Both the position numbers and the translations under genes were made by a program. From assembly GCA_964498505.1 (NCBI GenBank), contig CAZCGS010000001.1, forward strand, positions 1 to 28,016: 28,016 nucleotides of DNA, given 5' to 3'. This document shows positions 9,179-22,789 of the stretch, one piece after another. This DNA comes from an uncultured archaeon (GTDB lineage: Archaea; Aenigmatarchaeota; Aenigmatarchaeia; QMZS01). The number at the start of each line of letters is the position of its first letter. Position 1 is the stretch's first letter. The notes beneath the pieces were generated by a model that saw only the letters and a program-made list of their open reading frames with translations, did no database searches and was not told the origin of the DNA.

Positions 9179-9904
9179 TTAGCATAAACTCTTTAGAAAC
9201 TCTCCGATTTCCCTTATGGATTTCACTCTTGAAAGAAGTTGATTAAAATCTTCTCTATTCCCATATTTTTTACGATAAGCTTCTATAAGCTTTTCATACC
9301 TATTTGGATCTGTTACAAAAGTGCAATCAATTACATGAAGTAAAATATATCTGTTAGTCTCTATTTGTAGTTCATTATCCTTGTCAATAGTGATAAAAAT
9401 CAGTTTAATATATTGAGTATTTTTGGTTTTCTCTAATTCTCGTTTCCAAAAGGCAGTTTCTGTCAATCTTTCCCTTAGGCTAGTTTTGCATGAGACAATA
9501 GCTTTTACCAAATTAGTTCCCTTCTCAACAATAACCATATCAACATCAGGGAAAATATCACTCCAATTACGAATTACAATCTGGTCTCTATGTTGAATTA
9601 ATGCAATATCACCCATTAATACCAAAAGTTTATTACCAAGCCCATTTTTTGCTATCACCTCTTGAATAGATTTAAAGACAGCATACTCATACAAAGAACC
9701 TTTGCATGTTTTCCATGCTTGATCTTTGCCTCTTTGCTCTTTGTAAAATCTGTTAAGTAAATTCCTCAATCTTCTTTCTGCAATAGAATCAAACTCCTGA
9801 ACAGCCCTTAGGTAATCTCCGTTATATTTCTCCTTCGCTATTGTATCATATCCTCTCTTCAATAAGTTTAAAACCTCTTCCTTACATTTAAATCCTCTTC
9901 TCAT
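9179..9904 (-). CDS. Type II restriction endonuclease, BsaWI/CCGG-family-like PD-(D/E)xK nuclease
   Basis: WKTCKGSLYE, FPDVD and AIVSCKTSLRER. Overlaps the MTase gene by 17 nt. GAGGT SD upstream. Confidence 0.75.
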   Translation of the reverse strand: MRRGFKCKEEVLNLLKRGYDTIAKEKYNGDYLRAVQEFDSIAERRLRNLLNRFYKEQRGKDQAWKTCKGSLYEYAVFKSIQEVIAKNGLGNKLLVLMGDIALIQHRDQIVIRNWSDIFPDVDMVIVEKGTNLVKAIVSCKTSLRERLTETAFWKRELEKTKNTQYIKLIFITIDKDNELQIETNRYILLHVIDCTFVTDPNRYEKLIEAYRKKYGNREDFNQLLSRVKSIREIGEFLKSLC

Positions 9905-10730
9905 CTTCTCTTACCTCAAATAGCCTTTTCTGGAACAATTTACCTTCTTTAGTTATACGCATTTTTGCCAACTTGCAATATTTCTCATCTATTTCCACTC
10001 CAATACCTCTACGATTTAATAAAGCACATGCTATAAGCGTTGTTCCACTTCCTAAAAACGGGTCTAATATTGTATCTCCAACAAAACTAAAAAGTTTTAT
10101 ACATCTTTTTGGTAATTCAATTGGAAATGGGGCAGGATGTCTTACCCTTTTTCTACTTTCTCCGGGAAAATTCCAGACACCTTGCGTCCATTCCATAAAT
10201 TCCTCCTTTGTGATATCTGAGATTCCGCCCCTTAATTTAGACCACCTTTTTTTATAAAAGATAATGATCACCTCCACTGGTGCTATCACATAAGGCGCCT
10301 TTGCACTTAGCCAAGATCCCCAAGCAGTTCTCCTTGAAATATTTCCCTCATTCCATATAATTGTAGAAAAATATTTCCATCCTACTTTCTTAGCAATTTC
10401 TACTATATCTGCATATACACTTTGAAATCCAGCTTCTGTTCTTCCCTTACTTTTGTCAAGTGGTATGTTCAGGCACAACCTACCATCAGGTTTTACTAAC
10501 TCTAAAGCCTTTGAAAGCCATTTCTTGGTAAATTCAAGATATTTTTCGTATGGTATATCGTCTTCAAAGGAGTTATAATGAATATCTACATTATACGGTG
10601 GTGAGGTAACAATTAAATCTACAGAATTTTTTTGTATAAGTTCTGTTTTTAAAAAATCATCATTAATGACTATAATTTTATTTTCCCAATTAAAATATAT
10701 CTTATCATTTTTCAAAATACCAAAAGGCAT
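9888..10730 (-). CDS. Beta-class amino DNA methyltransferase (N4-mC favoured by the SPPY motif)
   Basis: Motif IV TSPPY near the N-terminus, HPAPFP, and motif I DPFLGSGTT near the C-terminus. Confidence 0.92.
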   Translation of the reverse strand: MPFGILKNDKIYFNWENKIIVINDDFLKTELIQKNSVDLIVTSPPYNVDIHYNSFEDDIPYEKYLEFTKKWLSKALELVKPDGRLCLNIPLDKSKGRTEAGFQSVYADIVEIAKKVGWKYFSTIIWNEGNISRRTAWGSWLSAKAPYVIAPVEVIIIFYKKRWSKLRGGISDITKEEFMEWTQGVWNFPGESRKRVRHPAPFPIELPKRCIKLFSFVGDTILDPFLGSGTTLIACALLNRRGIGVEIDEKYCKLAKMRITKEGKLFQKRLFEVREDEKRI

Positions 10731-10759: not shown

Positions 10760-12091
10760 TTAAATTTTCTCCGAAAGTTTTTCTTTCAATTTTTCTATCA
10801 AATATTTGGAGGCTAACGCAGGCTTACAATCCTTCACAAGCTCGTAATCCTTTTTCTTCACAATTGAGATTAGCCTTAGATTTAAATCCTGGCACGCCTT
10901 TTTCAGGGCTGTTAAACTCTCGGATTCCGGTCTAAAATATGCGAAAAAAGGTTTTCTATAATTTTTTGCGTGCGCCTTCAAATAATTTTTGATTCTCCGG
11001 TAGGTAACTTTTACATACAATTTTTTTATCTCCTCTGTTTCCCTCCATTCCTCCCAATCATAGGAATTGAAAGGATAGTAATTTACAAACTCTCTCGGAA
11101 TAACTCCAGGAGAGGAAATAGCAATTAAATGCAACTTATTTAAAGCTTCTATCTCCTTCAAAGCTTGCAAAATAGCCCTCCAGGTTTTTGATTTCGGATA
11201 GGGCTTTTTGTAAGAACAAGGTAGAAAAAGGGGGAATTTGCCCTTTGGAGGTTTGTAAAATCTAACAAAAAAATCCTGCCAAACCTCATAATAAGGATGG
11301 ACCAAAAATTCCCTTCCTACTCCCTTTAGCCTTTTCCTTGCCCAACCCGGAAATCTCGGGATGTAATTGAAATTATTAAAATCTATCTCAACTTTTATAC
11401 CTTTTTTTCTTAGGTAGGGCTTTACCAAACCATAAAACTGCTTTTCATCCAAGGGTTTCCATTTTAGGGATATGTAATCCTTCCATAATTCTGAATTGTA
11501 ATGAGGGTAGGTATTGATGATAACAACCTCATCACTGTATTTTTCTACCAACTCAAAGCTCTGCTTTAAAACCTTTTTTTGAAGCTTCCTGTTTTCAAAA
11601 AGTTCTTTGCAGCAATTTACCAGCAAATAGGTTCTAACCTTACATTTTAAGGAATGCAATAGTTTGCACGCCTTAACATAATCCCTTACTCTAAACCCTT
11701 TGTTTATCATCTTTAAAATCTTATCATCTCCAGCTTCCAATCCAATAGCAACTATCAATGTAAACTTTCTGCCGAGCAAAGGGTCCAAATTTTCTTTTTT
11801 TATAAATTCGGGTCTAGACTCTATAACCAACTCCTCTATTTTATATTTCCCCACCACCTTTCCGACCCACTCCAAAAATTCTCTATCGAACTGCTCCTTA
11901 TCCAAAAAACTTCCAGAGGAAAAAATTTTCAGCCTTTTTATTCCCTTATTTTTCTCCAAGAAATTCAGGAGCTTTTTCTTTAAATGCTTCAAATCCTTTT
12001 TTACCTCCTTTCTTCCCCAACCGCAGAAGTAGCACTTTCCCCACCAGCATTTCCCTGATTCCAAAATAATGCTTGCCTCTTCTCTTTCCAT
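10760..12091 (-). CDS. Fusion of a RaSEA-like radical SAM domain and an ArcS catalytic-type DUF5591 domain; putative single-chain archaeosine synthase
   Basis: N-terminal half: CWWGKCYFC, KIFSSGSFLD, IESRPEFI, VAIGLE...INKGF and TYLL (RaSEA/TIGR01210-like). C-terminal half: LFLPCSYKKPYPKSK and ISSPGVIPRE...YPFNSYDW (DUF5591-like). Confidence 0.8.
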   Translation of the reverse strand: MEREEASIILESGKCWWGKCYFCGWGRKEVKKDLKHLKKKLLNFLEKNKGIKRLKIFSSGSFLDKEQFDREFLEWVGKVVGKYKIEELVIESRPEFIKKENLDPLLGRKFTLIVAIGLEAGDDKILKMINKGFRVRDYVKACKLLHSLKCKVRTYLLVNCCKELFENRKLQKKVLKQSFELVEKYSDEVVIINTYPHYNSELWKDYISLKWKPLDEKQFYGLVKPYLRKKGIKVEIDFNNFNYIPRFPGWARKRLKGVGREFLVHPYYEVWQDFFVRFYKPPKGKFPLFLPCSYKKPYPKSKTWRAILQALKEIEALNKLHLIAISSPGVIPREFVNYYPFNSYDWEEWRETEEIKKLYVKVTYRRIKNYLKAHAKNYRKPFFAYFRPESESLTALKKACQDLNLRLISIVKKKDYELVKDCKPALASKYLIEKLKEKLSEKI

Positions 12092-12126: not shown

Positions 12127-12565
12127 TTATCTAATCGGAAGATAATCGCAAGGTACGAAAATATCTTTTGAGGCAATCTTCAGTTTTTCATCGGTTGTGT
12201 AAATTTTTGCATCATTTCTATTTTTATATCCCGTAGCCAATAAAAAACAATCTACTAAGGACAAACTAAATTTTTTAAATCTTATCCGGTAGTATCCTGC
12301 CAAAATGGCTGTATTGTTATCTATGCTCATTATCCTTGTGCCCTTTCACTGCTTTAAATCTCAAAATAGATTCGTTTGCCTTTTCTCTGTCAAGTCCATA
12401 CTTCATTAGCAATTGATAATAGGATTCGGCAATAATTGGCTCTATAACGCAACCGGTTTTAATTCCTTCTTGAATTTCTTCCCATGGATGTATCCATTTC
12501 TCCGGTAAATTATTAGTAAGGCAAAGCGTAACGAAGCCGGTATCCAATAAGTACATCTTCACCAT
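12127..12565 (-). pseudogene. PIN-domain (VapC-like) ribonuclease split by a one-base frameshift at 12341-12346
   Basis: ORF 12317-12565 carries YLLDTG and IIAES; ORF 12127-12330 carries LSLVDCFLLA and IYTTDEKL. Removing one base from GTG AAA GGG CAC gives a continuous 145-aa PIN protein (...AVKGTRIMSID...). Confidence 0.8.
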
Positions 12566-13949: not shown

Positions 13950-15218
13950 ATGCAGAGTTTCATGGAGTTTGTTTTTGTGCTGAGTAGGGCGCCAAGCGAA
14001 TACGAAAAGGAAAAATTGGAAAAATTTGTAAAGACTCTGGTTCCGAAAATTATAAAGGAAAAAAATTCCCTTAAAAATTTGGAAGTTCATTACGATAGAA
14101 TATTTTTGGAATATTGCACAGAAAAAATTCCTGCCCACAGAGCATTACCTAAAATAGTTAAGGAGTTTGAAAATTTTCTACATGAATTTAAGATAGGCCT
14201 TAGAGACTGCTATGCAAAAAGGTACGAGTTAAGATTGAATGTAAAAGGCGAAGGGATAAAAGATATTGAAATCCCTTTCGTAAAATCGTGTAAAGCTATA
14301 GATAGCAAAGCAACCATTGTCCTGGAACTTTTGGATTATTCCTTTTTCAGTAAGGGAAATATGGATAGGTTGCTGAAATTGGTAAAAGAAAAAATAAAAG
14401 GAAAAAGCAAGGAAATAGCTGAAATTGTTGAGGTTCGGGAGGAAGAAAAGGATTTGAGGAACGGAAAGGAAATTCTGAACCTTTACTCCTTAGAAAACCT
14501 GTTATCTCCTGAAATTTCCGGGCTGTATTTTGAAATTAAAAGGGAAATAGAAGAAAATCTGGAGGAGAAAGGATTTAGTAAGGCAGTTATCTTCCCTTTT
14601 AGAAATAAAAAGGAACTCATCCAAAAGTTAGGAAAGTTGAATATAAACCCGGAAGACCTGAATTTTCTGTATATCCTCAACCACAAGAAAAATAAGGAAA
14701 TGGAGAGAATAAAGGATAAGTTTAAAATTTTACTTGAGCTCGATGAGGAGGAAATGAAGGAAAATATTAAATTGATCGGTGTTATGAATTTGGGATACCT
14801 TGAATTGTGCATTCCTTTTTCAGGGAAATTCATCTCAAAAGAAAGCATCCCCCTAAAAATATATTCCGACCCAGAAAAAAGGATTGCTGGAGTTATAATG
14901 AGCTATCCATCCGATGCCGATAATTTTATGGAAGAACTTACAAACTTTTTAAAAGATATTTTAAAAAAATTCGGTTTGGGATACAGGGTAAAAAAAGTAG
15001 GGAATAGAATAGAATTGGAATCAAAGTCGAAAAGAAATAAGTGGATAAGTATTGCCAAGGTTATGCCAAACAAAAATCTCGGAAATCTTTTAAATATAAA
15101 GAGTAATAATGGCTATTTAAGCTGCACAGGTTTCGAAATCGATTTAGAAAATTTATTGATAGCCTATTTAGCCCATCATCCAAGCATCAAAAATGAGAAA
15201 AAGATAAAAATCCTTTAG
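13950..15218 (+). CDS. Degenerate paralog of methanogen-type seryl-tRNA synthetase (SerRS2), predicted catalytically inactive
   Basis: N-domain matches: AHRALPKI...FKIGLR, EIPFVKS and DRLLKLVKEKI. Motif 1-like GFSKAVIFP; IPLKIY. Motif 2 is missing and motif 3 reads DLEN rather than GLER. Confidence 0.72.
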   Translation: MQSFMEFVFVLSRAPSEYEKEKLEKFVKTLVPKIIKEKNSLKNLEVHYDRIFLEYCTEKIPAHRALPKIVKEFENFLHEFKIGLRDCYAKRYELRLNVKGEGIKDIEIPFVKSCKAIDSKATIVLELLDYSFFSKGNMDRLLKLVKEKIKGKSKEIAEIVEVREEEKDLRNGKEILNLYSLENLLSPEISGLYFEIKREIEENLEEKGFSKAVIFPFRNKKELIQKLGKLNINPEDLNFLYILNHKKNKEMERIKDKFKILLELDEEEMKENIKLIGVMNLGYLELCIPFSGKFISKESIPLKIYSDPEKRIAGVIMSYPSDADNFMEELTNFLKDILKKFGLGYRVKKVGNRIELESKSKRNKWISIAKVMPNKNLGNLLNIKSNNGYLSCTGFEIDLENLLIAYLAHHPSIKNEKKIKIL

Positions 15219-17077: not shown

Positions 17078-17659
17078 ATGGATATTAAGGTCCTTGAGGA
17101 TAATAGCCAGAAATTTGTGGTTGAGTTGAAAAATACAACGCCTTCCTTTGCAAATGCTATAAGAAGAATAATAATATCGGAAATTCCTGTTCTGGCGATA
17201 GAAGAGGTTGAGATAAGGGAAAATAACTCCGCATTGCAGGATGAACTGCTCGCAAACAGGCTTGGATTGATTCCCTTAAAATATCCGGTAAATAAGGTAG
17301 AAAAGCTTGACGGAGCAACCTTCTCTCTAAAAAAGGAAGGACCCTGCATAGTAAAGGCTGAGGATATAGTTTCTGATAACAAGGAAATTTCAGTTCTATA
17401 TCCTAACATACCCGTAGTTGTCCTGGCAGAAAAGCAAGAATTGGATTTAAGGATGGTGGCAAGGGTGAATAAGGGTAAGGAGCATGCCAAGTGGCAGGGA
17501 GGAATTGTTGGATATAAGAGTGATGAAAGCGAGAAAAATTTTGTGCTGGAAATAGAAAGCTGCTCAGCCTATACTCCAAAAGAGCTTTTCATAAAAAGCT
17601 TGGAAATACTTAGAGATAAGGCAAATTCCTTTGCAAAAGAGTTTGAGAAGTTAAAATAG
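17078..17659 (+). CDS. rpo3: DNA-directed RNA polymerase subunit D (Rpo3), short form without the ferredoxin-like domain
   Basis: FANAIRRIIISEIP, ENNSALQDELLANRLGLIP and GKEHAKWQ; 193 aa. Confidence 0.95.
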   Translation: MDIKVLEDNSQKFVVELKNTTPSFANAIRRIIISEIPVLAIEEVEIRENNSALQDELLANRLGLIPLKYPVNKVEKLDGATFSLKKEGPCIVKAEDIVSDNKEISVLYPNIPVVVLAEKQELDLRMVARVNKGKEHAKWQGGIVGYKSDESEKNFVLEIESCSAYTPKELFIKSLEILRDKANSFAKEFEKLK

Positions 17660-20600
17660 CTTCCTTTTTGTTAGAAGGATAGCACCGAATAAGGTTAAGG
17701 CTAAATAGGCGTACAAATCAATTTCATCCATTTTATGCATAATTATATTAATGTAGGTCTTCTTTTTAAACAAAATATTGCCAGAAAGGTCTTTAATTAT
17801 TATCTCTACCGGATAATATCCTGCTCTTCCGGCATTCTCTATCCACACATAGGTAGAGTTTGCTCCGTAAGAATCTCCTTGCATCCTAGGTATGGTTAAG
17901 GTAATTTGGGTATTTTTCTCACCAACATCTCCCAACCAAACCCAATTTTTTGCATACCCCCCAACTTCTATGCTTACATTTACTACTTTGCTTTCATTTC
18001 CCGGGTTTTGAATTAAAATTATGAATACTCTTTTATTCTTTGTTCCCAAAGGAACATTCGCTTGCCCCGGCTTCACCAAATAAAGTTCCTTTATTAATTC
18101 TCCGCAATCTATAGTTACTTCCTGATAAAAGTAAGGATTATAAATATCTCGCCATTTATGCTTTACATAAGGTTTATAAATCCCGTACCGGGTAAAATTT
18201 ATCACCATATAAACCCTATGAATGGTGCTTTCATTATCGCAGGAAAGCCTGGAGCTATCTATCAAAGCCTCCCAGTAGTTGGTTAGCCCGTTAAAGCTCA
18301 TATTTTCCCAAGGAATTTCTTCATCTTCTTCCTCTGTGTTTATATTGTACTTGGTAACCCTGAATTTTGCATAGGAATTGTTATCTGAAGCTAAAAACTC
18401 GAATGCCTGAATTTTTTCCCATTTATCGAAATCCATATCTCCAACCAAATAACCTTTAACCTTAATTTCCAAAGGCTCTGTCCTCATCACTATCTTAGGA
18501 ACCTTCCAATCAACCAAATCAATCGCGGCAACCCGGTATGAGACAAATCCTCCTTCGGCAATTGAGAAATTAAGTTTGTTTGGCGTCTGGTTATAAAAAC
18601 TTCCGTTAAAATAAGGCCAGAAGTAATGAAGTTCGGCTGTATAATTATACAAACCTAAAACCCAATGGCTTTTTCCTAAAAAGTAAGAGAAATTTCCAGT
18701 TTTGTTCTTAGGTAAATTTACCCAGGAAGTTGGGTCAGAATAGTTTAACGATACATGCAATTCTCTTGTAGGATTTTGGGAAGCTCTGGAAAATACCATT
18801 ATCCTTGTCTGGTTCCATAGCCTTCCGTGCCATCCTAAATTTCCATTGTTTGTAAAGTTTATCACATACCACACATTGTCCAAAGGATTCACCCATTTAT
18901 CCTTATCTGTTATGTTTATCGAATTTATGGTTCCGTTGAGCGTAATATTATAATCAAAGTATCCTGAGACATTATATTCGTTGGTTATTATGTATCTCAG
19001 GGAAGTCGTCTTATTCAGAAGTTTTAAATCGAGAATAAAGCAAGAAAAATTATATCCACTTAAGTTGCAATCGTCAGAAGAGAAAGGTTTTATTCCGCAA
19101 GACTCTATAGAACCGTTATAGGAACAATTTTGAGCGGAGATTTTGAACAACGGTTGGTTATTGGAAATTAGCTTGGCTTCCCCTTCTGCATAGGCAAATG
19201 TTGTATTGTTTATTATCTCAAAATCCCCTATTATTATATCCTCAACCTTAAACAAATCATTGTTTGTATCGAAATCGGAGATTACCTTCAAGCTGGAATT
19301 ATCCCTAACAATTATCTCCAAATCAAAGTACCCCAAATCTCCATCCGACATGGAGTTCGGAGCATTGAACCAGCACCTTGCAAAAAAAGTCCCTGTAGAT
19401 TTATTTGTAAGGTTCATTTCTTTATCAACACAATTTGTTACAGTATTTCCTCCATAAGTATTGCCTTCATCACTCCTAAATCTTAAGGTAATATAAAGCT
19501 TTTCTGAATCGCTGTAAATAGCATCCAAATCCTTTGCGGTTATGTTGAAATACATTATATCTGCGGTTTGAGGTGCATCCTTATTTCTATCTATGATTTT
19601 ATTTCCGTCCTTATTTCCGAACCAGGTAAGGTTTATACCGTAGGGCGGAGAATTTATTATTTTGTACCAGGAATCATAGCAGCTTTCACCTGGAAAACAA
19701 ACATCTAAAGCATCGGCCCAAAATTCTCCGTAAGAGTTATCATTGTCCGAATCAACATTTGTATCTCTAATATGCGGTATTATATTTAAAATTCCAGGCC
19801 CGAAAAGATATGCCTCCTTTTCCAAGGATAGGGTTTTCTGCTCTGAAACATCTAACTGGAACTCCGGAGTATCTAAAGTTTCCTCTGCCGAGCTTCCCGA
19901 AAAGTTAGCTCCAATAACAGCATGTTTTAAATCATAATCCGGCTCTGCCCTAACAGTTATATTAACCCTTGCTGTTTGGTTAACTCTAAGGTCATGGGTC
20001 AGAGAATGGGCTATGATTGCATCTATTTTTATTTCTGGGGTAGGGACTAGCTGGATGTATTTTACATTAGAAGAAAAATTTTTAATCGTAAAATTGTTAA
20101 TAGTAAAATCATCATCACTAGGAGAAGATGTTTCACCAATATAGACATGAGCGCTTCCATTAACATAAAACTCTATCCAGCCACTTGGCAAAACCCTTTC
20201 AAATTCAAAGGTAATGCTAAAGTTTCCCTTTGCATACCTTCCGTCCTTAGGACCTAAGGCAAAGCTTGCATTTTCCCATCTCGTCTCATCATAATCAGAA
20301 GTTATGTTAGAAAGCCAGTAATAGCAGGGAATTGTTGCGTTTGCTTTTATTATTTCTGCCTTTATTTTAGGCAACCCTGCTCCTATCCCTCCATCCAAAT
20401 AAGGAGGACCTGAGCTTTTGGCCATGCAGAATATCTCCCTTTTAGTGCTTAGCCGGGGTTCTAAAGAGCCTTTAAACTCTATTACAAAATCTCCGTTAGT
20501 GTCTGTGGTTGTTTCCTGATAGGTATTTGAGTTCTCACCATAATCAAATTGGGAAGAAAAGTTGTTTCCATTTAAGGAGCAATGAACTTTAGCATTAGAC

Positions 20601-22789
20601 AAAGAAGAATTTCCAGAAATCTTTTTTACCTTTCCCTCTATTTTAACATGATTCGTCTTTTTTGTTGGAATCGAAAAGGTTATGGAAAGGTCGTTAACCT
20701 TAAAAAGGTCGTCCTTGGTTACGGAATCGGTTAATCCTTCTTTATCCTTAGCCACAATCACAACATCATAATAGCCTAGCTCCGCATCATCCTTAGGGTT
20801 ATAATCATGATAGCAACTCCAGTTATTTGCGTCTAAGTAAGAGCATGTCATCTGGACCGAGTTTACAGGATTTCCATTTTGATCCTTTGCAATTGTTGTC
20901 CCGTCCGGTTCATAGATTGTTATATAAACTCCCTCCATATCCCAATTATTCTGATCATAAACCTCCACCGATACCCTAACTTTATCTGTTGTCCCTGAAG
21001 TTTCCTTATCCCTATCTATTTCATCATAATCTACCTCAACAAACTTAATAGCAGGATAGGCATACCACTTTCCAGAGTTACAGTACTCCTTTACTCCATC
21101 TCCGTCTATATCGCTTGAGGTTCCGTTTAAATAACAAGCATTATTCCAAACACAATCATCGCTATGGGCGCAACAGGCTTTAGTATCGCCCGAGCAGAAG
21201 CAGGCACTTAAATTGCAGGAGCAGGTTATAGCATATTCGTTAGCATCGTCTCCGCAGCAAGTATTTGGAGAGGAAGCACAATCTCCGCTAGAGCAACCCC
21301 ATTGCCAGTTTAAAGCACATGTCCCACAAGTGTTGGAATTTGTATCTGGATCATAATCCTTGTAAGTGCAAGATTCATACACCCCATTCCCATTTACATC
21401 AAGTACAATCGCCTCTTTGTAAATAGCGCCAACTTTTCCAGCACCAGAGCAATAATCTGAAATTAGACTTCCAGCAGACTTGTTAGTGCAATAATCAGGA
21501 TTTGAGTCGGAGCAATACCCTTCTTTCCCAGGCTTGCAGTATCCATTTATTGAAGAATCATCCCCATCGCTATCAAACGCTGCAACATCATAGTCCCTGC
21601 AATCTTTTATTCCAGTAATATAACTGCTCCCACTTGCACAGTATTCAGTTAGATTGTACCCACTGCAACTATCATAGTAGGTATTATAAGTACAAGAACC
21701 GTCAGAACAGGTAATATAATCATATATGTATCCTCCGGTTGTATAATCCCAGCAACCATCAGATTCATAAGTATTCTTTAATGCGCAATCTTCCACAATT
21801 GGACCCCATACATAAGTACAGGTGCTAGTATTTGGAATTACATAATAATCCTTATAAGCTCTAATCTCAGAGCCGTTACAGGTATAACTGCAAATATCAG
21901 ACCAATCGCAATTTTTAGTTGAGCAATATTCTGTTGTGTAAGTACAACTGCCTGCAGAATTTACATAATAATCTCTTTCTTGAGAAGAAGGATCGCTACC
22001 ACAGCCTTCTATATTTCCTCCGCCATACCATCCATCATAAGGATCATCACAGTCTTTTATTGAAGTAACTGAATATGTGCAAACACCGTCAGAACAAAAA
22101 TAATCCCAGTATTCTGCAGTTGGGTCATCCATATTTGAGCAACCAGGGCCATAATCTCCATAGTTACGCCAACCATCATAATTATCACAATTTGTGCAAT
22201 TCCCTGCATAATCGCAATTTCCGGAGCCATCACAATAACCCTGGCAGGAGTAGTTACCACCTGCACCATAACCGTTATCTCCAAGGGTCGAGCATTTAAA
22301 TGTAGGATTGCAAAGATGGTCCGAACCAAGGTTGGTATGGGTACAATAGGCACTGGGCTGTCCCGGATTCTTGCAAGTATCTTGAGTACATGGCTTACCA
22401 TCATCGCAATCGCTATCATCAAAACAAGCTATTTCCTGGCATTGGCAGGAAGCATCGCAGTAGTAACCGTTTTCACACTTAGAATTGTTTGGAGTAACTT
22501 CCCAACCAGAGTCTGTGCAGGAGCAATCGCAGCATCCATCGCAACCTGCCGGCTTATCTTCGGAATTTGCGTAATAGCATGCAGAAACACCCCAATCCGG
22601 AAAATAAGTGCAATTAGTAAAACCATAGCAACATTTATTGCTATCCCATGGTTTTATTGTAGAAGAAGGACATGAGATAGAGGAGCAGCTTCCCGAATAT
22701 ATCCTGCAAATATAATCGCATTTCGATATGTTCAAAAGAAGCAAGAAGCCGATAAAAATCAAAATTAGCCTTATCCTACCTCGAACCAT
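17651..22789 (-). CDS. Giant (1712 aa) membrane-anchored surface glycoprotein: signal peptide, Cys-rich N-terminal region, Ig-like modules, C-terminal TM helix plus basic tail
   Basis: Hydrophobic N-terminus; about 550 aa rich in Cys/Asp/Tyr; duplicated Ig-like module; many N-x-S/T sequons; ends YAYLALTLFGAILLTKRKLF. Confidence 0.88.
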   Translation of the reverse strand: MVRGRIRLILIFIGFLLLLNISKCDYICRIYSGSCSSISCPSSTIKPWDSNKCCYGFTNCTYFPDWGVSACYYANSEDKPAGCDGCCDCSCTDSGWEVTPNNSKCENGYYCDASCQCQEIACFDDSDCDDGKPCTQDTCKNPGQPSAYCTHTNLGSDHLCNPTFKCSTLGDNGYGAGGNYSCQGYCDGSGNCDYAGNCTNCDNYDGWRNYGDYGPGCSNMDDPTAEYWDYFCSDGVCTYSVTSIKDCDDPYDGWYGGGNIEGCGSDPSSQERDYYVNSAGSCTYTTEYCSTKNCDWSDICSYTCNGSEIRAYKDYYVIPNTSTCTYVWGPIVEDCALKNTYESDGCWDYTTGGYIYDYITCSDGSCTYNTYYDSCSGYNLTEYCASGSSYITGIKDCRDYDVAAFDSDGDDSSINGYCKPGKEGYCSDSNPDYCTNKSAGSLISDYCSGAGKVGAIYKEAIVLDVNGNGVYESCTYKDYDPDTNSNTCGTCALNWQWGCSSGDCASSPNTCCGDDANEYAITCSCNLSACFCSGDTKACCAHSDDCVWNNACYLNGTSSDIDGDGVKEYCNSGKWYAYPAIKFVEVDYDEIDRDKETSGTTDKVRVSVEVYDQNNWDMEGVYITIYEPDGTTIAKDQNGNPVNSVQMTCSYLDANNWSCYHDYNPKDDAELGYYDVVIVAKDKEGLTDSVTKDDLFKVNDLSITFSIPTKKTNHVKIEGKVKKISGNSSLSNAKVHCSLNGNNFSSQFDYGENSNTYQETTTDTNGDFVIEFKGSLEPRLSTKREIFCMAKSSGPPYLDGGIGAGLPKIKAEIIKANATIPCYYWLSNITSDYDETRWENASFALGPKDGRYAKGNFSITFEFERVLPSGWIEFYVNGSAHVYIGETSSPSDDDFTINNFTIKNFSSNVKYIQLVPTPEIKIDAIIAHSLTHDLRVNQTARVNITVRAEPDYDLKHAVIGANFSGSSAEETLDTPEFQLDVSEQKTLSLEKEAYLFGPGILNIIPHIRDTNVDSDNDNSYGEFWADALDVCFPGESCYDSWYKIINSPPYGINLTWFGNKDGNKIIDRNKDAPQTADIMYFNITAKDLDAIYSDSEKLYITLRFRSDEGNTYGGNTVTNCVDKEMNLTNKSTGTFFARCWFNAPNSMSDGDLGYFDLEIIVRDNSSLKVISDFDTNNDLFKVEDIIIGDFEIINNTTFAYAEGEAKLISNNQPLFKISAQNCSYNGSIESCGIKPFSSDDCNLSGYNFSCFILDLKLLNKTTSLRYIITNEYNVSGYFDYNITLNGTINSINITDKDKWVNPLDNVWYVINFTNNGNLGWHGRLWNQTRIMVFSRASQNPTRELHVSLNYSDPTSWVNLPKNKTGNFSYFLGKSHWVLGLYNYTAELHYFWPYFNGSFYNQTPNKLNFSIAEGGFVSYRVAAIDLVDWKVPKIVMRTEPLEIKVKGYLVGDMDFDKWEKIQAFEFLASDNNSYAKFRVTKYNINTEEEDEEIPWENMSFNGLTNYWEALIDSSRLSCDNESTIHRVYMVINFTRYGIYKPYVKHKWRDIYNPYFYQEVTIDCGELIKELYLVKPGQANVPLGTKNKRVFIILIQNPGNESKVVNVSIEVGGYAKNWVWLGDVGEKNTQITLTIPRMQGDSYGANSTYVWIENAGRAGYYPVEIIIKDLSGNILFKKKTYINIIMHKMDEIDLYAYLALTLFGAILLTKRKLF

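Follow-up and report, generated by a model that had tools for sequence, protein, structure and literature searches.

To our knowledge, the last steps of archaeosine (G+) synthesis are biochemically understood only for the euryarchaeal two-subunit ArcS-RaSEA system and for QueF-like. The ArcS-RaSEA complex was reportedly first presented by Yokogawa et al. in 2019, and the radical SAM enzyme QueL is said to cleave an exocyclic C-N bond in the side chain of a 7-deazaguanine. In the ArcS-RaSEA complex of T. kodakarensis, the alpha subunit is the lysine transferase and the beta subunit is the radical SAM preQ0-Lys lyase (PMC11298593). QueF-like and Gat-QueC are alternative archaeosine synthases of Crenarchaeota (PMC5699537).

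The window analyzed in this study, a stretch of 28,016 nucleotides from an uncultured DPANN archaeon of the Aenigmatarchaeota, contains a single uninterrupted open reading frame of 443 amino acids, with no internal stops. A preliminary description had presented it as a fusion of a RaSEA-like domain of about 240 residues and the DUF5591 core of ArcS, and both halves matched the HMMs named there, TIGR01210 and PF17884. The following features were assigned:

10760-12091, minus strand: whole gene, RaSEA-like::ArcS-C1 fusion (open reading frame list; stop codon at 10760-10762).
11357-12091, minus strand: radical SAM domain, RaSEA-like with a queuine-lyase-like fold, residues 1-245 (TIGR01210, PF04055, VIA-align).
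12023-12049, minus strand: [4Fe-4S] motif C15-x4-C20-x2-C23, CWWGKCYFC (translation, conservation).
11288-11356, minus strand: connector, residues 246-268 (conservation; alignment with canonical RaSEA).
10763-11287, minus strand: ArcS C1 / DUF5591 domain, residues 269-443 (PF17884, phmmer, VIA-align).
11180-11221, minus strand: ArcS signature P291-C-x3-K-P-Y-x2-S-x2-W304, PCSYKKPYPKSKTW (translation, conservation).

In Pfam, Radical_SAM (PF04055) covered residues 17-158 with 40.7 bits, above its gathering threshold of 29.5, and DUF5591 (PF17884) covered residues 271-372 with 55.3 bits against a threshold of 26. The best NCBIfam family was RaSEA, TIGR01210, with 102.4 bits and an E value of 2.7e-29 over residues 7-194, the match spanning only positions 17-210 of the 313 in the model; Elp3, MnmL and other NCBIfam families reached at most 30 bits. 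The ArcS models NF040592 and NF053620 matched residues 268-373, the C1 region only, with 48.3 and 45.3 bits, and the C-terminal half was matched by phmmer to AF0587 (2q07) with an E value of 3.9e-7. No match to TGT, TGT_C2 or PUA was obtained anywhere in the protein with Pfam and NCBIfam. The AF2 model had a mean pLDDT of 95.5 and a pTM of 0.91, corresponding to one compact two-domain unit. VIA-align superimposed model residues 3-242 on the queuine lyase 6p78 (Z 18.3, 22% identity) and gave Z values of 15-18 towards many radical SAM structures, in keeping with the partial TIM-barrel fold of this superfamily. Model residues 269-443 were superimposed on AF0587 (Z 14.6, rmsd 2.6 A over 138 residues, 25% identity). 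This C1 match came from the wide VIA-align search; with Foldseek and the whole model, the best 50 matches were all radical SAM proteins. The presence of two complete domains is supported by these comparisons of the predicted fold.

Neither half scored as a full member of its named family. The 102.4 bits towards TIGR01210 lie below the RaSEA equivalog cutoff of 212.15, whereas P0126, P0127, P0129 and P0130 scored 226-343 bits. The RaSEA loop, G-C-x-W-x4-5-G-G-C-x-M-C-G, is not found in the fusion; the cysteine triad is invariant but is spaced C-x4-C-x2-C. Proteins passing the RaSEA cutoff (P0131 lies at the cutoff) have C-x7/8-C-x2-C, so the preliminary description was right in calling the cluster motif tighter than in RaSEA. 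The x4 spacing was seen in 75 of 75 readable loci and occurs in QueL and Elp3 as well. In the alignment with canonical RaSEA, the C-terminal Cys-rich segment (NCxKC ... CxC) is absent from the fusion, and the chain runs instead through the connector, with conserved G257, L263, H265 and P266, into C1. For ArcS, the 48.3 and 45.3 bits compare with cutoffs of 440 (NF040592) and 600 (NF053620). Canonical ArcS, as in P0280, consists of a TGT-like N-terminal domain, C1, C2 and PUA; the fusion has C1 only, with the C1 fold of AF0587. Since both curated equivalog cutoffs are failed, the fusion is, by sequence, a distinct family and a member of neither RaSEA nor ArcS.

The architecture is widespread and not unique to the window. 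More than 275 homologous proteins share it, forming a family of 420-470 amino acids in DPANN, TACK and Asgard archaea, and over 100 of them align end-to-end with 98-100% query coverage and 43-55% identity. The fusion is encoded in 143 species-representative genomes, one complete isolate genome included, and the cultured Ignicoccus pacificus (DSM 13166) carries the gene, of the Trp type as in the window, together with another DUF5591 protein of 267 residues. When the C1 half alone was used in word-index searches, the matches were limited to three short or fragmentary proteins; the N-terminal half gave few matches, usable canonical RaSEA sequences among them. Compared with the orthologue in a sister genome, pN and pS were 0.08 and 0.72 for the whole gene, 0.09 and 0.76 for the radical SAM half and 0.065 and 0.69 for the C1 half; by this measure purifying selection acts strongly on each half. 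The preliminary description had named an assembly artefact as an outcome that would overturn its reading, and the sequence comes from a metagenome-assembled genome of about 0.7 Mb that is fragmented (81 contigs) and 84% complete. However, the same single frame in all these proteins and genomes, the lack of stops, the selection on both halves, the invariant catalytic motifs and the high pTM speak against a chimeric assembly, a two-gene read-through or a gene with one inactive half, and the idea of an artefact or decaying gene can practically be dismissed. Fusions of ArcS-C1 and RaSEA exist in other arrangements too: P0208 has ArcS C1-C2-PUA followed by RaSEA, P0155 has C1 followed by RaSEA, and P0142 is an ArcS-C1/RaSEA fusion with an insert. 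Such alternative orders lend Rosetta-stone support to a putative role as archaeosine synthase.

Conservation was examined across 87-120 homologues. The cysteine triad, SGS, ESRPE and GLE are conserved in the N-terminal half and PC-x3-KPY-x2-S, SPGxxP-E and YPF-YDW in the C-terminal half. The triad is kept in 118-119 of 120 homologues, the remainder being alignment gaps, and is invariant in an alignment of 87 sequences (A1), whose 42 invariant columns are all present in the window protein. SGSF, ESRPE, GLE and KG are invariant columns common to the fusions and canonical RaSEA (alignment A2), and the C1 core residues are common to the fusion and canonical ArcS P0280. C292, K296, P297, Y298 and S301 are invariant in the 120 homologues; of the signature PC-x3-KPY-x2-S-x2-H, the window protein has P, C, K, P, Y and S, and Trp at the last position. 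This deviation, pointed out at the outset, is real, as both P0280 and AF0587 end in His. Of the 120 homologues, 85 have His and 35 have Trp at residue 304, with about four changes on the tree, and positions 324, 422 and 424 covary with the split. From this distribution, Trp304 is a clade-level variant of the fusion family and not peculiar to the window gene. Because it covaries with residue 324, residue 304 is probably a packing position; in DUF5591 proteins at large it can be H, W, Y or I, which speaks against a part in catalysis. The view that His304 is indispensable for catalysis finds no support.

The same features bear on the product. An enzyme in this position downstream of ArcTGT on tRNA could use another amine donor or another radical reaction and form a product other than archaeosine, which possibly differs between His-type and Trp-type enzymes. 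Such a product would fit a radical SAM domain below the RaSEA cutoff, with an x4 in place of an x7/8 loop and without the Cys-rich tail, a queuine lyase and not a RaSEA as the nearest solved structure, and His and Trp clades with covarying residues. We nevertheless consider it unlikely: the residues common to the canonical ArcS C1 and RaSEA cores are all kept, RaSEA is clearly the closest family, residue 304 varies outside the fusions as well, and the queuine lyase match may mirror availability only, because a deposited RaSEA structure is apparently lacking. On a bolder proposal, the fusion family would install an undescribed 7-deazaguanine derivative, and not archaeosine, at tRNA position 15 in DPANN, TACK and Asgard archaea. 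The queuine-lyase-like domain without the second Cys motif of RaSEA and the two C1 subtypes may form a basis for this, and the fusion might then be docked on ArcTGT, its own RNA-binding module being absent. We find this proposal distinctly unlikely.

The preliminary description had advised that the genome be searched for arcTGT and for separate arcS and RaSEA genes. A full-length ArcTGT was present, with 381 bits against a cutoff of 350 and with C2 and PUA, and the fusion was the sole RaSEA-, DUF5591- or ArcS-like gene among the 81 contigs of the 84% complete genome, which leaves no separate arcS or RaSEA in them. Among 151 genomes of the phylum, ArcTGT was present in 18 of the 19 with the fusion versus 4 of the 132 without it, counts that are not phylogenetically independent. 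ArcTGT lies within 5 kb of the fusion in 13 fusion-bearing genomes of the phylum and, in a set of 80 loci spanning many phyla, within 6 kb at 25; in two Thermoproteota loci it adjoins the fusion on the same strand. In the genus of the window organism, the two genes are on different contigs and not adjacent. ARAGORN detected no more than 3 tRNA genes across all 81 contigs, too few for a strong check of G15; both tRNA-Val have G15 by manual register. QueF or QueF-like and QueD gave no match in the 84% complete genome, and the sole QueC-like match, on contig 4, was rejected as evidence of preQ0 synthesis, as it is ThiI (408 bits). Since QueC and QueD were not found while ArcTGT and the fusion are kept, preQ0 is probably salvaged by this archaeon.

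The missing QueC and QueD, and with them the need to salvage deazaguanines, would also suit an enzyme that acts on free preQ0 nucleoside, nucleotide or base, with ArcTGT then inserting a G+-type base. The lack of PUA, C2 and TGT-like modules fits this route, as do the queuine lyase, the closest solved fold, which acts on a free base, and canonical ArcS, which accepts preQ0 nucleoside and its 5'-monophosphate (PMC11298593). However, canonical ArcS does not use preQ0 as the base, its Km for the nucleotide is very high (433 uM), and free preQ0 nucleotides are unknown as metabolites except from tRNA breakdown (PMC11298593). The fusion also occurs in lineages other than DPANN, such as the cultured Ignicoccus, and is therefore not confined to reduced genomes. 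The free-substrate route is improbable.

A DNA methyltransferase and a BsaWI-type endonuclease follow the fusion gene on the same strand, 29 bp downstream. This neighborhood raises the possibility that the fusion modifies DNA, placing a dG+-type mark like the phage and virus ArcS2, perhaps in connection with these genes; standalone DUF5591 (ArcS2) with DpdA2 produces dG+ in DNA (PMC10516641). The restriction-modification pair is, however, an ordinary methyl-based type II system. Neither the otherwise syntenic locus of the sister genome nor any of the 89 other loci has it, which makes it, by gene order, a local insertion. The sole TGT-family gene found is a bona fide ArcTGT with C2 and PUA, a second, DpdA-like copy was not found, and the partner conserved across phyla is ArcTGT. 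A link to the adjacent genes was accordingly rejected as the main reading, and modification of DNA by the fusion is very improbable.

The fusion is probably a single-chain archaeosine synthase with two active sites, which would act after ArcTGT has inserted preQ0 and complete G+15. The candidate minimal archaeosine synthase of the preliminary description is in this way supported by the HMMs, the folds and the link to ArcTGT, its function being a prediction from sequence. What was established directly is the identity of the domains, the conservation of their motifs, purifying selection on the gene and its genomic link to ArcTGT. ArcTGT would first insert preQ0 at position 15 of the tRNA. The C1 domain, with Cys292, Lys296-Pro-Tyr and Ser301, would attach lysine through its amino group to the preQ0-15 nitrile, giving a preQ0-Lys amidine adduct. 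The radical SAM domain, with SAM and a [4Fe-4S] cluster on C15, C20 and C23, would then generate a 5'-deoxyadenosyl radical, and cleavage of the lysine C-N bond by this radical would leave the formamidine of archaeosine. This mechanism is modelled on the ArcS-RaSEA complex of T. kodakarensis, from which we infer the substrates, lysine as donor, the product and the order of steps. Location of both sites in one compact unit may allow the intermediate to be handed over. As the TGT-like N-terminal domain, C2 and PUA are all missing, the fusion would either recognize the modified nucleotide and the D-arm directly or work alongside ArcTGT. Activity without a PUA domain appears feasible, because ArcS of T. 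kodakarensis accepts even the 5'-monophosphate of the preQ0 nucleoside for lysine transfer and does not need the L-shape (PMC11298593). Against the synthase reading are the scores below the RaSEA and ArcS cutoffs, the altered cluster loop, the lack of a Cys-rich tail and of an RNA-binding domain, and a signature motif that ends in Trp where canonical ArcS has His. The separation of the gene from arcTGT in the genus, the 84% completeness of the genome and the non-independence of the co-occurrence counts also weigh against it.

If the synthase reading is true, it would explain how the pathway is completed in a large part of archaeal diversity, namely in DPANN, Methanomethylicia, Culexarchaeia, Korarchaeia-like lineages, many Thermoproteota and some Asgard archaea. 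The TGT-like, C2 and PUA domains of ArcS and the Cys-rich tail of RaSEA would then be dispensable for the chemistry. Retention of ArcTGT and the fusion in a genome of about 0.7 Mb in which QueC and QueD were not found also implies that these symbionts probably salvage preQ0. A compact, thermostable and confidently modelled scaffold of 420-470 amino acids would be at hand for structural study of the sites of lysine transfer and radical C-N cleavage; according to the 2024 ArcS paper, structural work is still missing (PMC11298593). The papers covered by a literature search contained neither a description of the fusion nor a biochemical or genetic test of any member; this agrees with the preliminary description, which knew of no characterized fusion of this kind, and a prior mention outside these papers is possible.

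Of the known systems, QueF-like and Gat-QueC catalyze the step proposed for the fusion, from preQ0 to G+, and likewise occur patchily among archaea, in a pattern that complements ArcS; their folds, a T-fold and QueC with GATase, are unrelated. QueL from Clostridium spiroforme has the same C-x-W-G-K-C-x-F-C cluster motif with x4 spacing, and its structure, 6p78, with the free base queuine bound, is the closest solved one to residues 3-242. QueL is, however, a standalone bacterial enzyme of about 250 amino acids with no C1 domain, and by sequence the fusion matches RaSEA better (102 bits towards TIGR01210 versus 38 bits towards 6p78). AF0587 is a 306-residue chain, of which the DUF5591 region is the part matched by the fusion, and it presumably also carries C2/PUA. 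AF0587, a split ArcS piece, and the phage and virus ArcS2 (PMC10516641) have the C1/DUF5591 fold and signature motif in common with the fusion and show that C1 exists without a TGT-like N-terminal domain; unlike the fusion they lack a radical SAM domain, and ArcS2 works with DpdA on DNA. The ArcS-RaSEA complex consists of two subunits, whereas the fusion is one chain, radical SAM first and C1 second, without the TGT-like N-terminal domain, C2 and PUA of ArcS and without the C-terminal Cys-rich segment of RaSEA. The fusion further differs in its x4 loop (x7/8 in RaSEA), in scores far below both curated cutoffs and in the Trp that ends the window motif. Both systems combine C1/DUF5591 (PC-x3-KPY-x2-S) with a TIGR01210-like core (ESRPE/GLE/KG), both have ArcTGT as the preceding enzyme of the pathway, and in both the two activities are physically coupled.

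The fusion of a RaSEA-like radical SAM domain with the C1 core (DUF5591) of ArcS was read from the following features, both motifs translating exactly as quoted in the preliminary description.

10760-12091, minus strand: fusion ORF, a single uninterrupted frame of 443 aa
residues 17-158: Radical_SAM domain (Pfam, 40.7 bits)
residues 271-372: DUF5591 domain (Pfam, 55.3 bits, cutoff 26)
12023-12049: cluster motif CWWGKCYFC
11180-11221: ArcS motif PCSYKKPYPKSKTW

The two-part architecture proposed in that description was borne out, as each half matched its named HMM family (TIGR01210 and DUF5591). RaSEA (TIGR01210) was by far the best NCBIfam model for the N-terminal half (102.4 bits, E 2.7e-29), with the Elp3, MnmL and B12-radical SAM families at 30 bits or less, and the C-terminal half matched both NCBIfam models of the ArcS alpha subunit (48 and 45 bits). 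The claimed absence of PUA and TGT-like domains also held: no TGT, TGT_C2 or PUA match was found anywhere in the protein by Pfam/NCBIfam profile search. The AlphaFold2 model (87-sequence alignment; mean pLDDT 95.5, pTM 0.91) confidently predicts a compact two-domain unit. In a VIA-align comparison of the model with 48,161 PDB representatives, residues 3-242 were most similar to queuine lyase (6p78; Z 18.3, 22% identity), with numerous radical SAM enzymes ranking next. Residues 269-443 matched AF0587 (2q07), a split ArcS piece, with a Z of 14.6 and an rmsd of 2.6 Å over 138 residues. The same two entries headed a sequence-level PDB search, and the C-terminal half is therefore a complete ArcS C1 domain and no fragment.

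An assembly or gene-calling artefact was excluded, since homologues are widespread, both halves are constrained and the model is confident. At least 275 homologues were found by word-index search of 5.8 billion proteins. Among the 120 matches listed, lengths were 401-486 aa and query coverage 84-100% (most 98-100%), nearly all carried both Pfam domains, and named sources were Nanoarchaeota, Aenigmatarchaeota, Micrarchaeota, Altiarchaeota, Methanomethylicia, Culexarchaeia, Asgardarchaeia and Thermoproteota. When one genome per GTDB species was scanned with a sequence pattern, 143 species were found to encode the fusion, among them cultured Ignicoccus pacificus DSM 13166, whose genome is complete. 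Exhaustive HMMER searching of 1.84 billion representatives at 50% identity yielded about 13 clusters of full-length fusions. Against the sister-genome orthologue (84% identity) the nonsynonymous proportion was 0.08 and the synonymous 0.72 (saturated), with equal constraint on both halves. Many connector residues were invariant or near-invariant among homologues.

Of 120 homologues, 118-119 keep cysteines C15, C20 and C23 of the cluster motif, the rest being alignment gaps. SGS, ESRPE, GLE and K131 were likewise conserved in the N-terminal half, and C292, K296, P297, Y298, S301, S326-P-G, P332, Y339-P-F, Y344-D-W, E351 and R366 in the C-terminal half. The cluster motif had been described as tighter than in RaSEA, and this was found to be so. 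Four RaSEA proteins that pass the TIGR01210 cutoff (P0126, P0127, P0129 and P0130; 226-343 bits) have G-C-x-W-x4/5-G-G-C-x-M-C-G, that is C-x7/8-C-x2-C, and they also carry an NCxKC...CxC segment at the C-terminus. In the fusion the motif is C-x4-C-x2-C and this Cys-rich tail is missing. The x4 spacing, common to queuine lyase and Elp3, was present in all 75 fusion loci with both motifs readable in one frame, and is thus a family character.

The terminal Trp of the ArcS motif (position 304) is real and not specific to this gene: among 120 homologues 85 have His and 35 Trp, and named loci gave 67 His and 19 Trp. On the ML tree the residue switches about 4 times, against about 30 when the assignments are shuffled. 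Its strongest covariation is with position 324 (Ala accompanying Trp, Val/Met accompanying His), and it covaries with 422 and 424 too; the bulky-with-small pairing with 324 points to a packing role. Elsewhere in DUF5591 the equivalent residue is also Tyr (in the second C1 protein of Ignicoccus) or Ile (in the database protein P0155), with the Cys, K-P-Y and Ser of the motif unchanged. From these alignments we infer that the canonical His would be dispensable for ArcS-type chemistry. The main sources of Trp-type proteins are Culexarchaeia, Methanomethylicia, Korarchaeia-like Thermoproteota, Thermofilaceae, Desulfurococcales (including Ignicoccus) and one Asgard genome, and the majority of DPANN members are His-type. 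The window protein and that of a genus-mate are Trp-type, on a long branch (support 0.93) beside a clade with TACK/Asgard source-named members in the tree of 120 homologues. Within its own family, only this genus had fusion and ArcTGT in the phylum survey; the pathway could have been acquired laterally by the genus.

Co-occurrence with ArcTGT, which makes preQ0-tRNA, was counted in 151 genomes of the phylum, a fusion being scored if full-length with E < 1e-80. The fusion was present in 19 genomes and ArcTGT above cutoff in 22; 18 had both, one (G046) the fusion alone and four ArcTGT alone, these genomes being related and not phylogenetically independent. The association is nevertheless seen across ten or more families and in several phyla. 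Neither DUF5591 nor RaSEA was found in the four ArcTGT-only genomes, and nothing scored as high as the canonical RaSEA cutoff in the six genomes searched (these four, G046 and the window's own). The four, three of one genus (G021, G063, G070) and G094, have ArcTGT frames of 462-491 aa against the usual ~570 aa, and may stop at preQ0-tRNA or take another route. In 13 of the 18 genomes with both, the two genes share a contig and are no more than about 5 kb apart, several as adjacent divergent pairs. ArcTGT was 6 kb or less from the fusion in 25 of 80 named loci from many phyla; in two of these, from Thermoproteota, it directly follows the fusion in the same orientation. Other arrangements were found: P0208, a fragment, joins ArcS C1-C2-PUA without a break to a canonical-type RaSEA (truncated, yet scoring 202 bits), P0155 (680 aa) has C1 then RaSEA, and P0142 (635 aa) has radical SAM, a ~190-aa insert and C1, in the order of the window fusion. 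Such repeated and independent fusion is Rosetta-stone evidence that the RaSEA and C1 modules work together, like the characterised complex. I. pacificus (CP006868.1) encodes ArcTGT besides the fusion, and two further proteins at separate loci:

L102:1114-1917, plus strand: standalone 267-aa DUF5591 protein, motif PCSKVKPYRDSFMY ending in Tyr, with a class I/II aminotransferase gene immediately downstream
L104:1447-2310, plus strand: additional 287-aa truncated TGT-like protein

As had been proposed, the window's own genome (686 kb, 81 contigs, 84% complete) was searched for arcTGT and for separate arcS and RaSEA genes. Its sole TGT-family gene encodes a 569-aa ArcTGT (TIGR00432 381 bits, cutoff 350) with TGT, C2 and PUA domains. 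The fusion was the only TIGR01210 and the only DUF5591 match; no separate RaSEA, ArcS or standalone C1 gene was found in this genome by profile search, and tblastn matched the fusion gene and ArcTGT only. The fusion thus appears to be the sole protein for the steps after preQ0 insertion. QueF/QueF-like, QueD and YhhQ gave no match (QueE and GTP cyclohydrolase were outside the search), and a weak QueC-family match was rejected, the protein being ThiI. Because neither QueD nor a genuine QueC was found, the organism appears to insert salvaged preQ0. Retention of ArcTGT and the fusion despite the missing QueD and QueC implies such salvage, presumably from a host via a transporter. Whether or not introns were allowed for, ARAGORN reported no more than three tRNA genes across the 686 kb, two for Val and one for Arg. 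Either most tRNA genes escaped assembly or binning, or they are non-canonical (split or permuted).

The fusion gene is flanked by a GGPP synthase gene, and downstream, starting on the same strand, by genes for a DNA methyltransferase, an endonuclease, DUF488 and a thermosome.

9179-9904, minus strand: BsaWI-type endonuclease, overlapping the methyltransferase by 17 bp
9888-10730, minus strand: N4/N6 DNA methyltransferase, downstream of the fusion on the same strand
12317-12565, minus strand: 82-aa ORF, missing from the sister locus (L021/L007)
13950-15218, plus strand: 422-aa protein matching methanogen-type SerRS in the N-terminal tRNA-binding domain only (PF18490, 40 bits)
17651-22789, minus strand: 1712-aa ORF without a Pfam family at E <= 1e-4

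Phage ArcS2 has a DNA-modification role (PMC10516641), and the restriction-modification neighbours would suggest the same for the fusion. This was rejected: the sister genome has PCNA, SerRS-like, GGPPS, fusion, DUF488 and thermosome in order without the pair, and none occurred by the fusion at 89 other loci. The pair is therefore a local insertion and no partner. This type II pair and the 82-aa ORF are recent insertions on either side of the fusion gene. The 422-aa protein (NF002120 41 bits, cutoff 611) resembles a SerRS paralogue in which no catalytic core can be recognised, and the 1712-aa ORF probably encodes a large surface protein.

The fusion itself being confirmed, archaeosine synthesis is the best explanation of its function, and the protein is probably a single-chain archaeosine synthase. 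In T. kodakarensis, ArcS moves lysine onto preQ0-15 to give preQ0-Lys, which ArcS-bound RaSEA converts to archaeosine (G+) (PMC11298593). ArcS requires neither an L-shape nor a long RNA; preQ0 nucleoside 5'-monophosphate is a substrate, the free base is not, and the D-arm speeds the reaction (PMC11298593). As ArcS accepts the monophosphate without L-shape or long RNA, a bare C1 domain is plausibly enough for the first step. By analogy, the C1 domain would form the amidine adduct of lysine with preQ0, with Cys292 as a possible nucleophile, similar to the thioimide chemistry of QueF-type enzymes. Cleavage of the lysine C-N bond would fall to the radical SAM domain in the next step. Queuine lyase, too, cuts an exocyclic C-N bond on a 7-deazaguanine side chain, which would fit this lyase assignment. 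Without C2 and PUA, the fusion may read the D-arm directly or act beside ArcTGT at the buried position 15.

Standalone C1 proteins have already been described (PMC10516641). No description of a RaSEA-C1 fusion was found in the literature searched, and an earlier mention in Yokogawa 2019 or Phillips 2010, 2012 is possible. In databases the family is named only 'DUF5591 domain-containing protein', 'radical SAM protein' or occasionally 'archaeosine synthase'. A single-chain synthase would be useful and readily testable for specialists, and only modestly surprising given the known ArcS-RaSEA complex. The fusion proteins are a conserved family of their own. The proposed synthase would work like ArcS plus RaSEA, yet belongs to neither curated family: compared with RaSEA it scores 102 bits against a cutoff of 212, has a different cluster loop and lacks the Cys-rich tail, and compared with ArcS it scores 48 bits against a cutoff of 440 and lacks three of the four ArcS domains.
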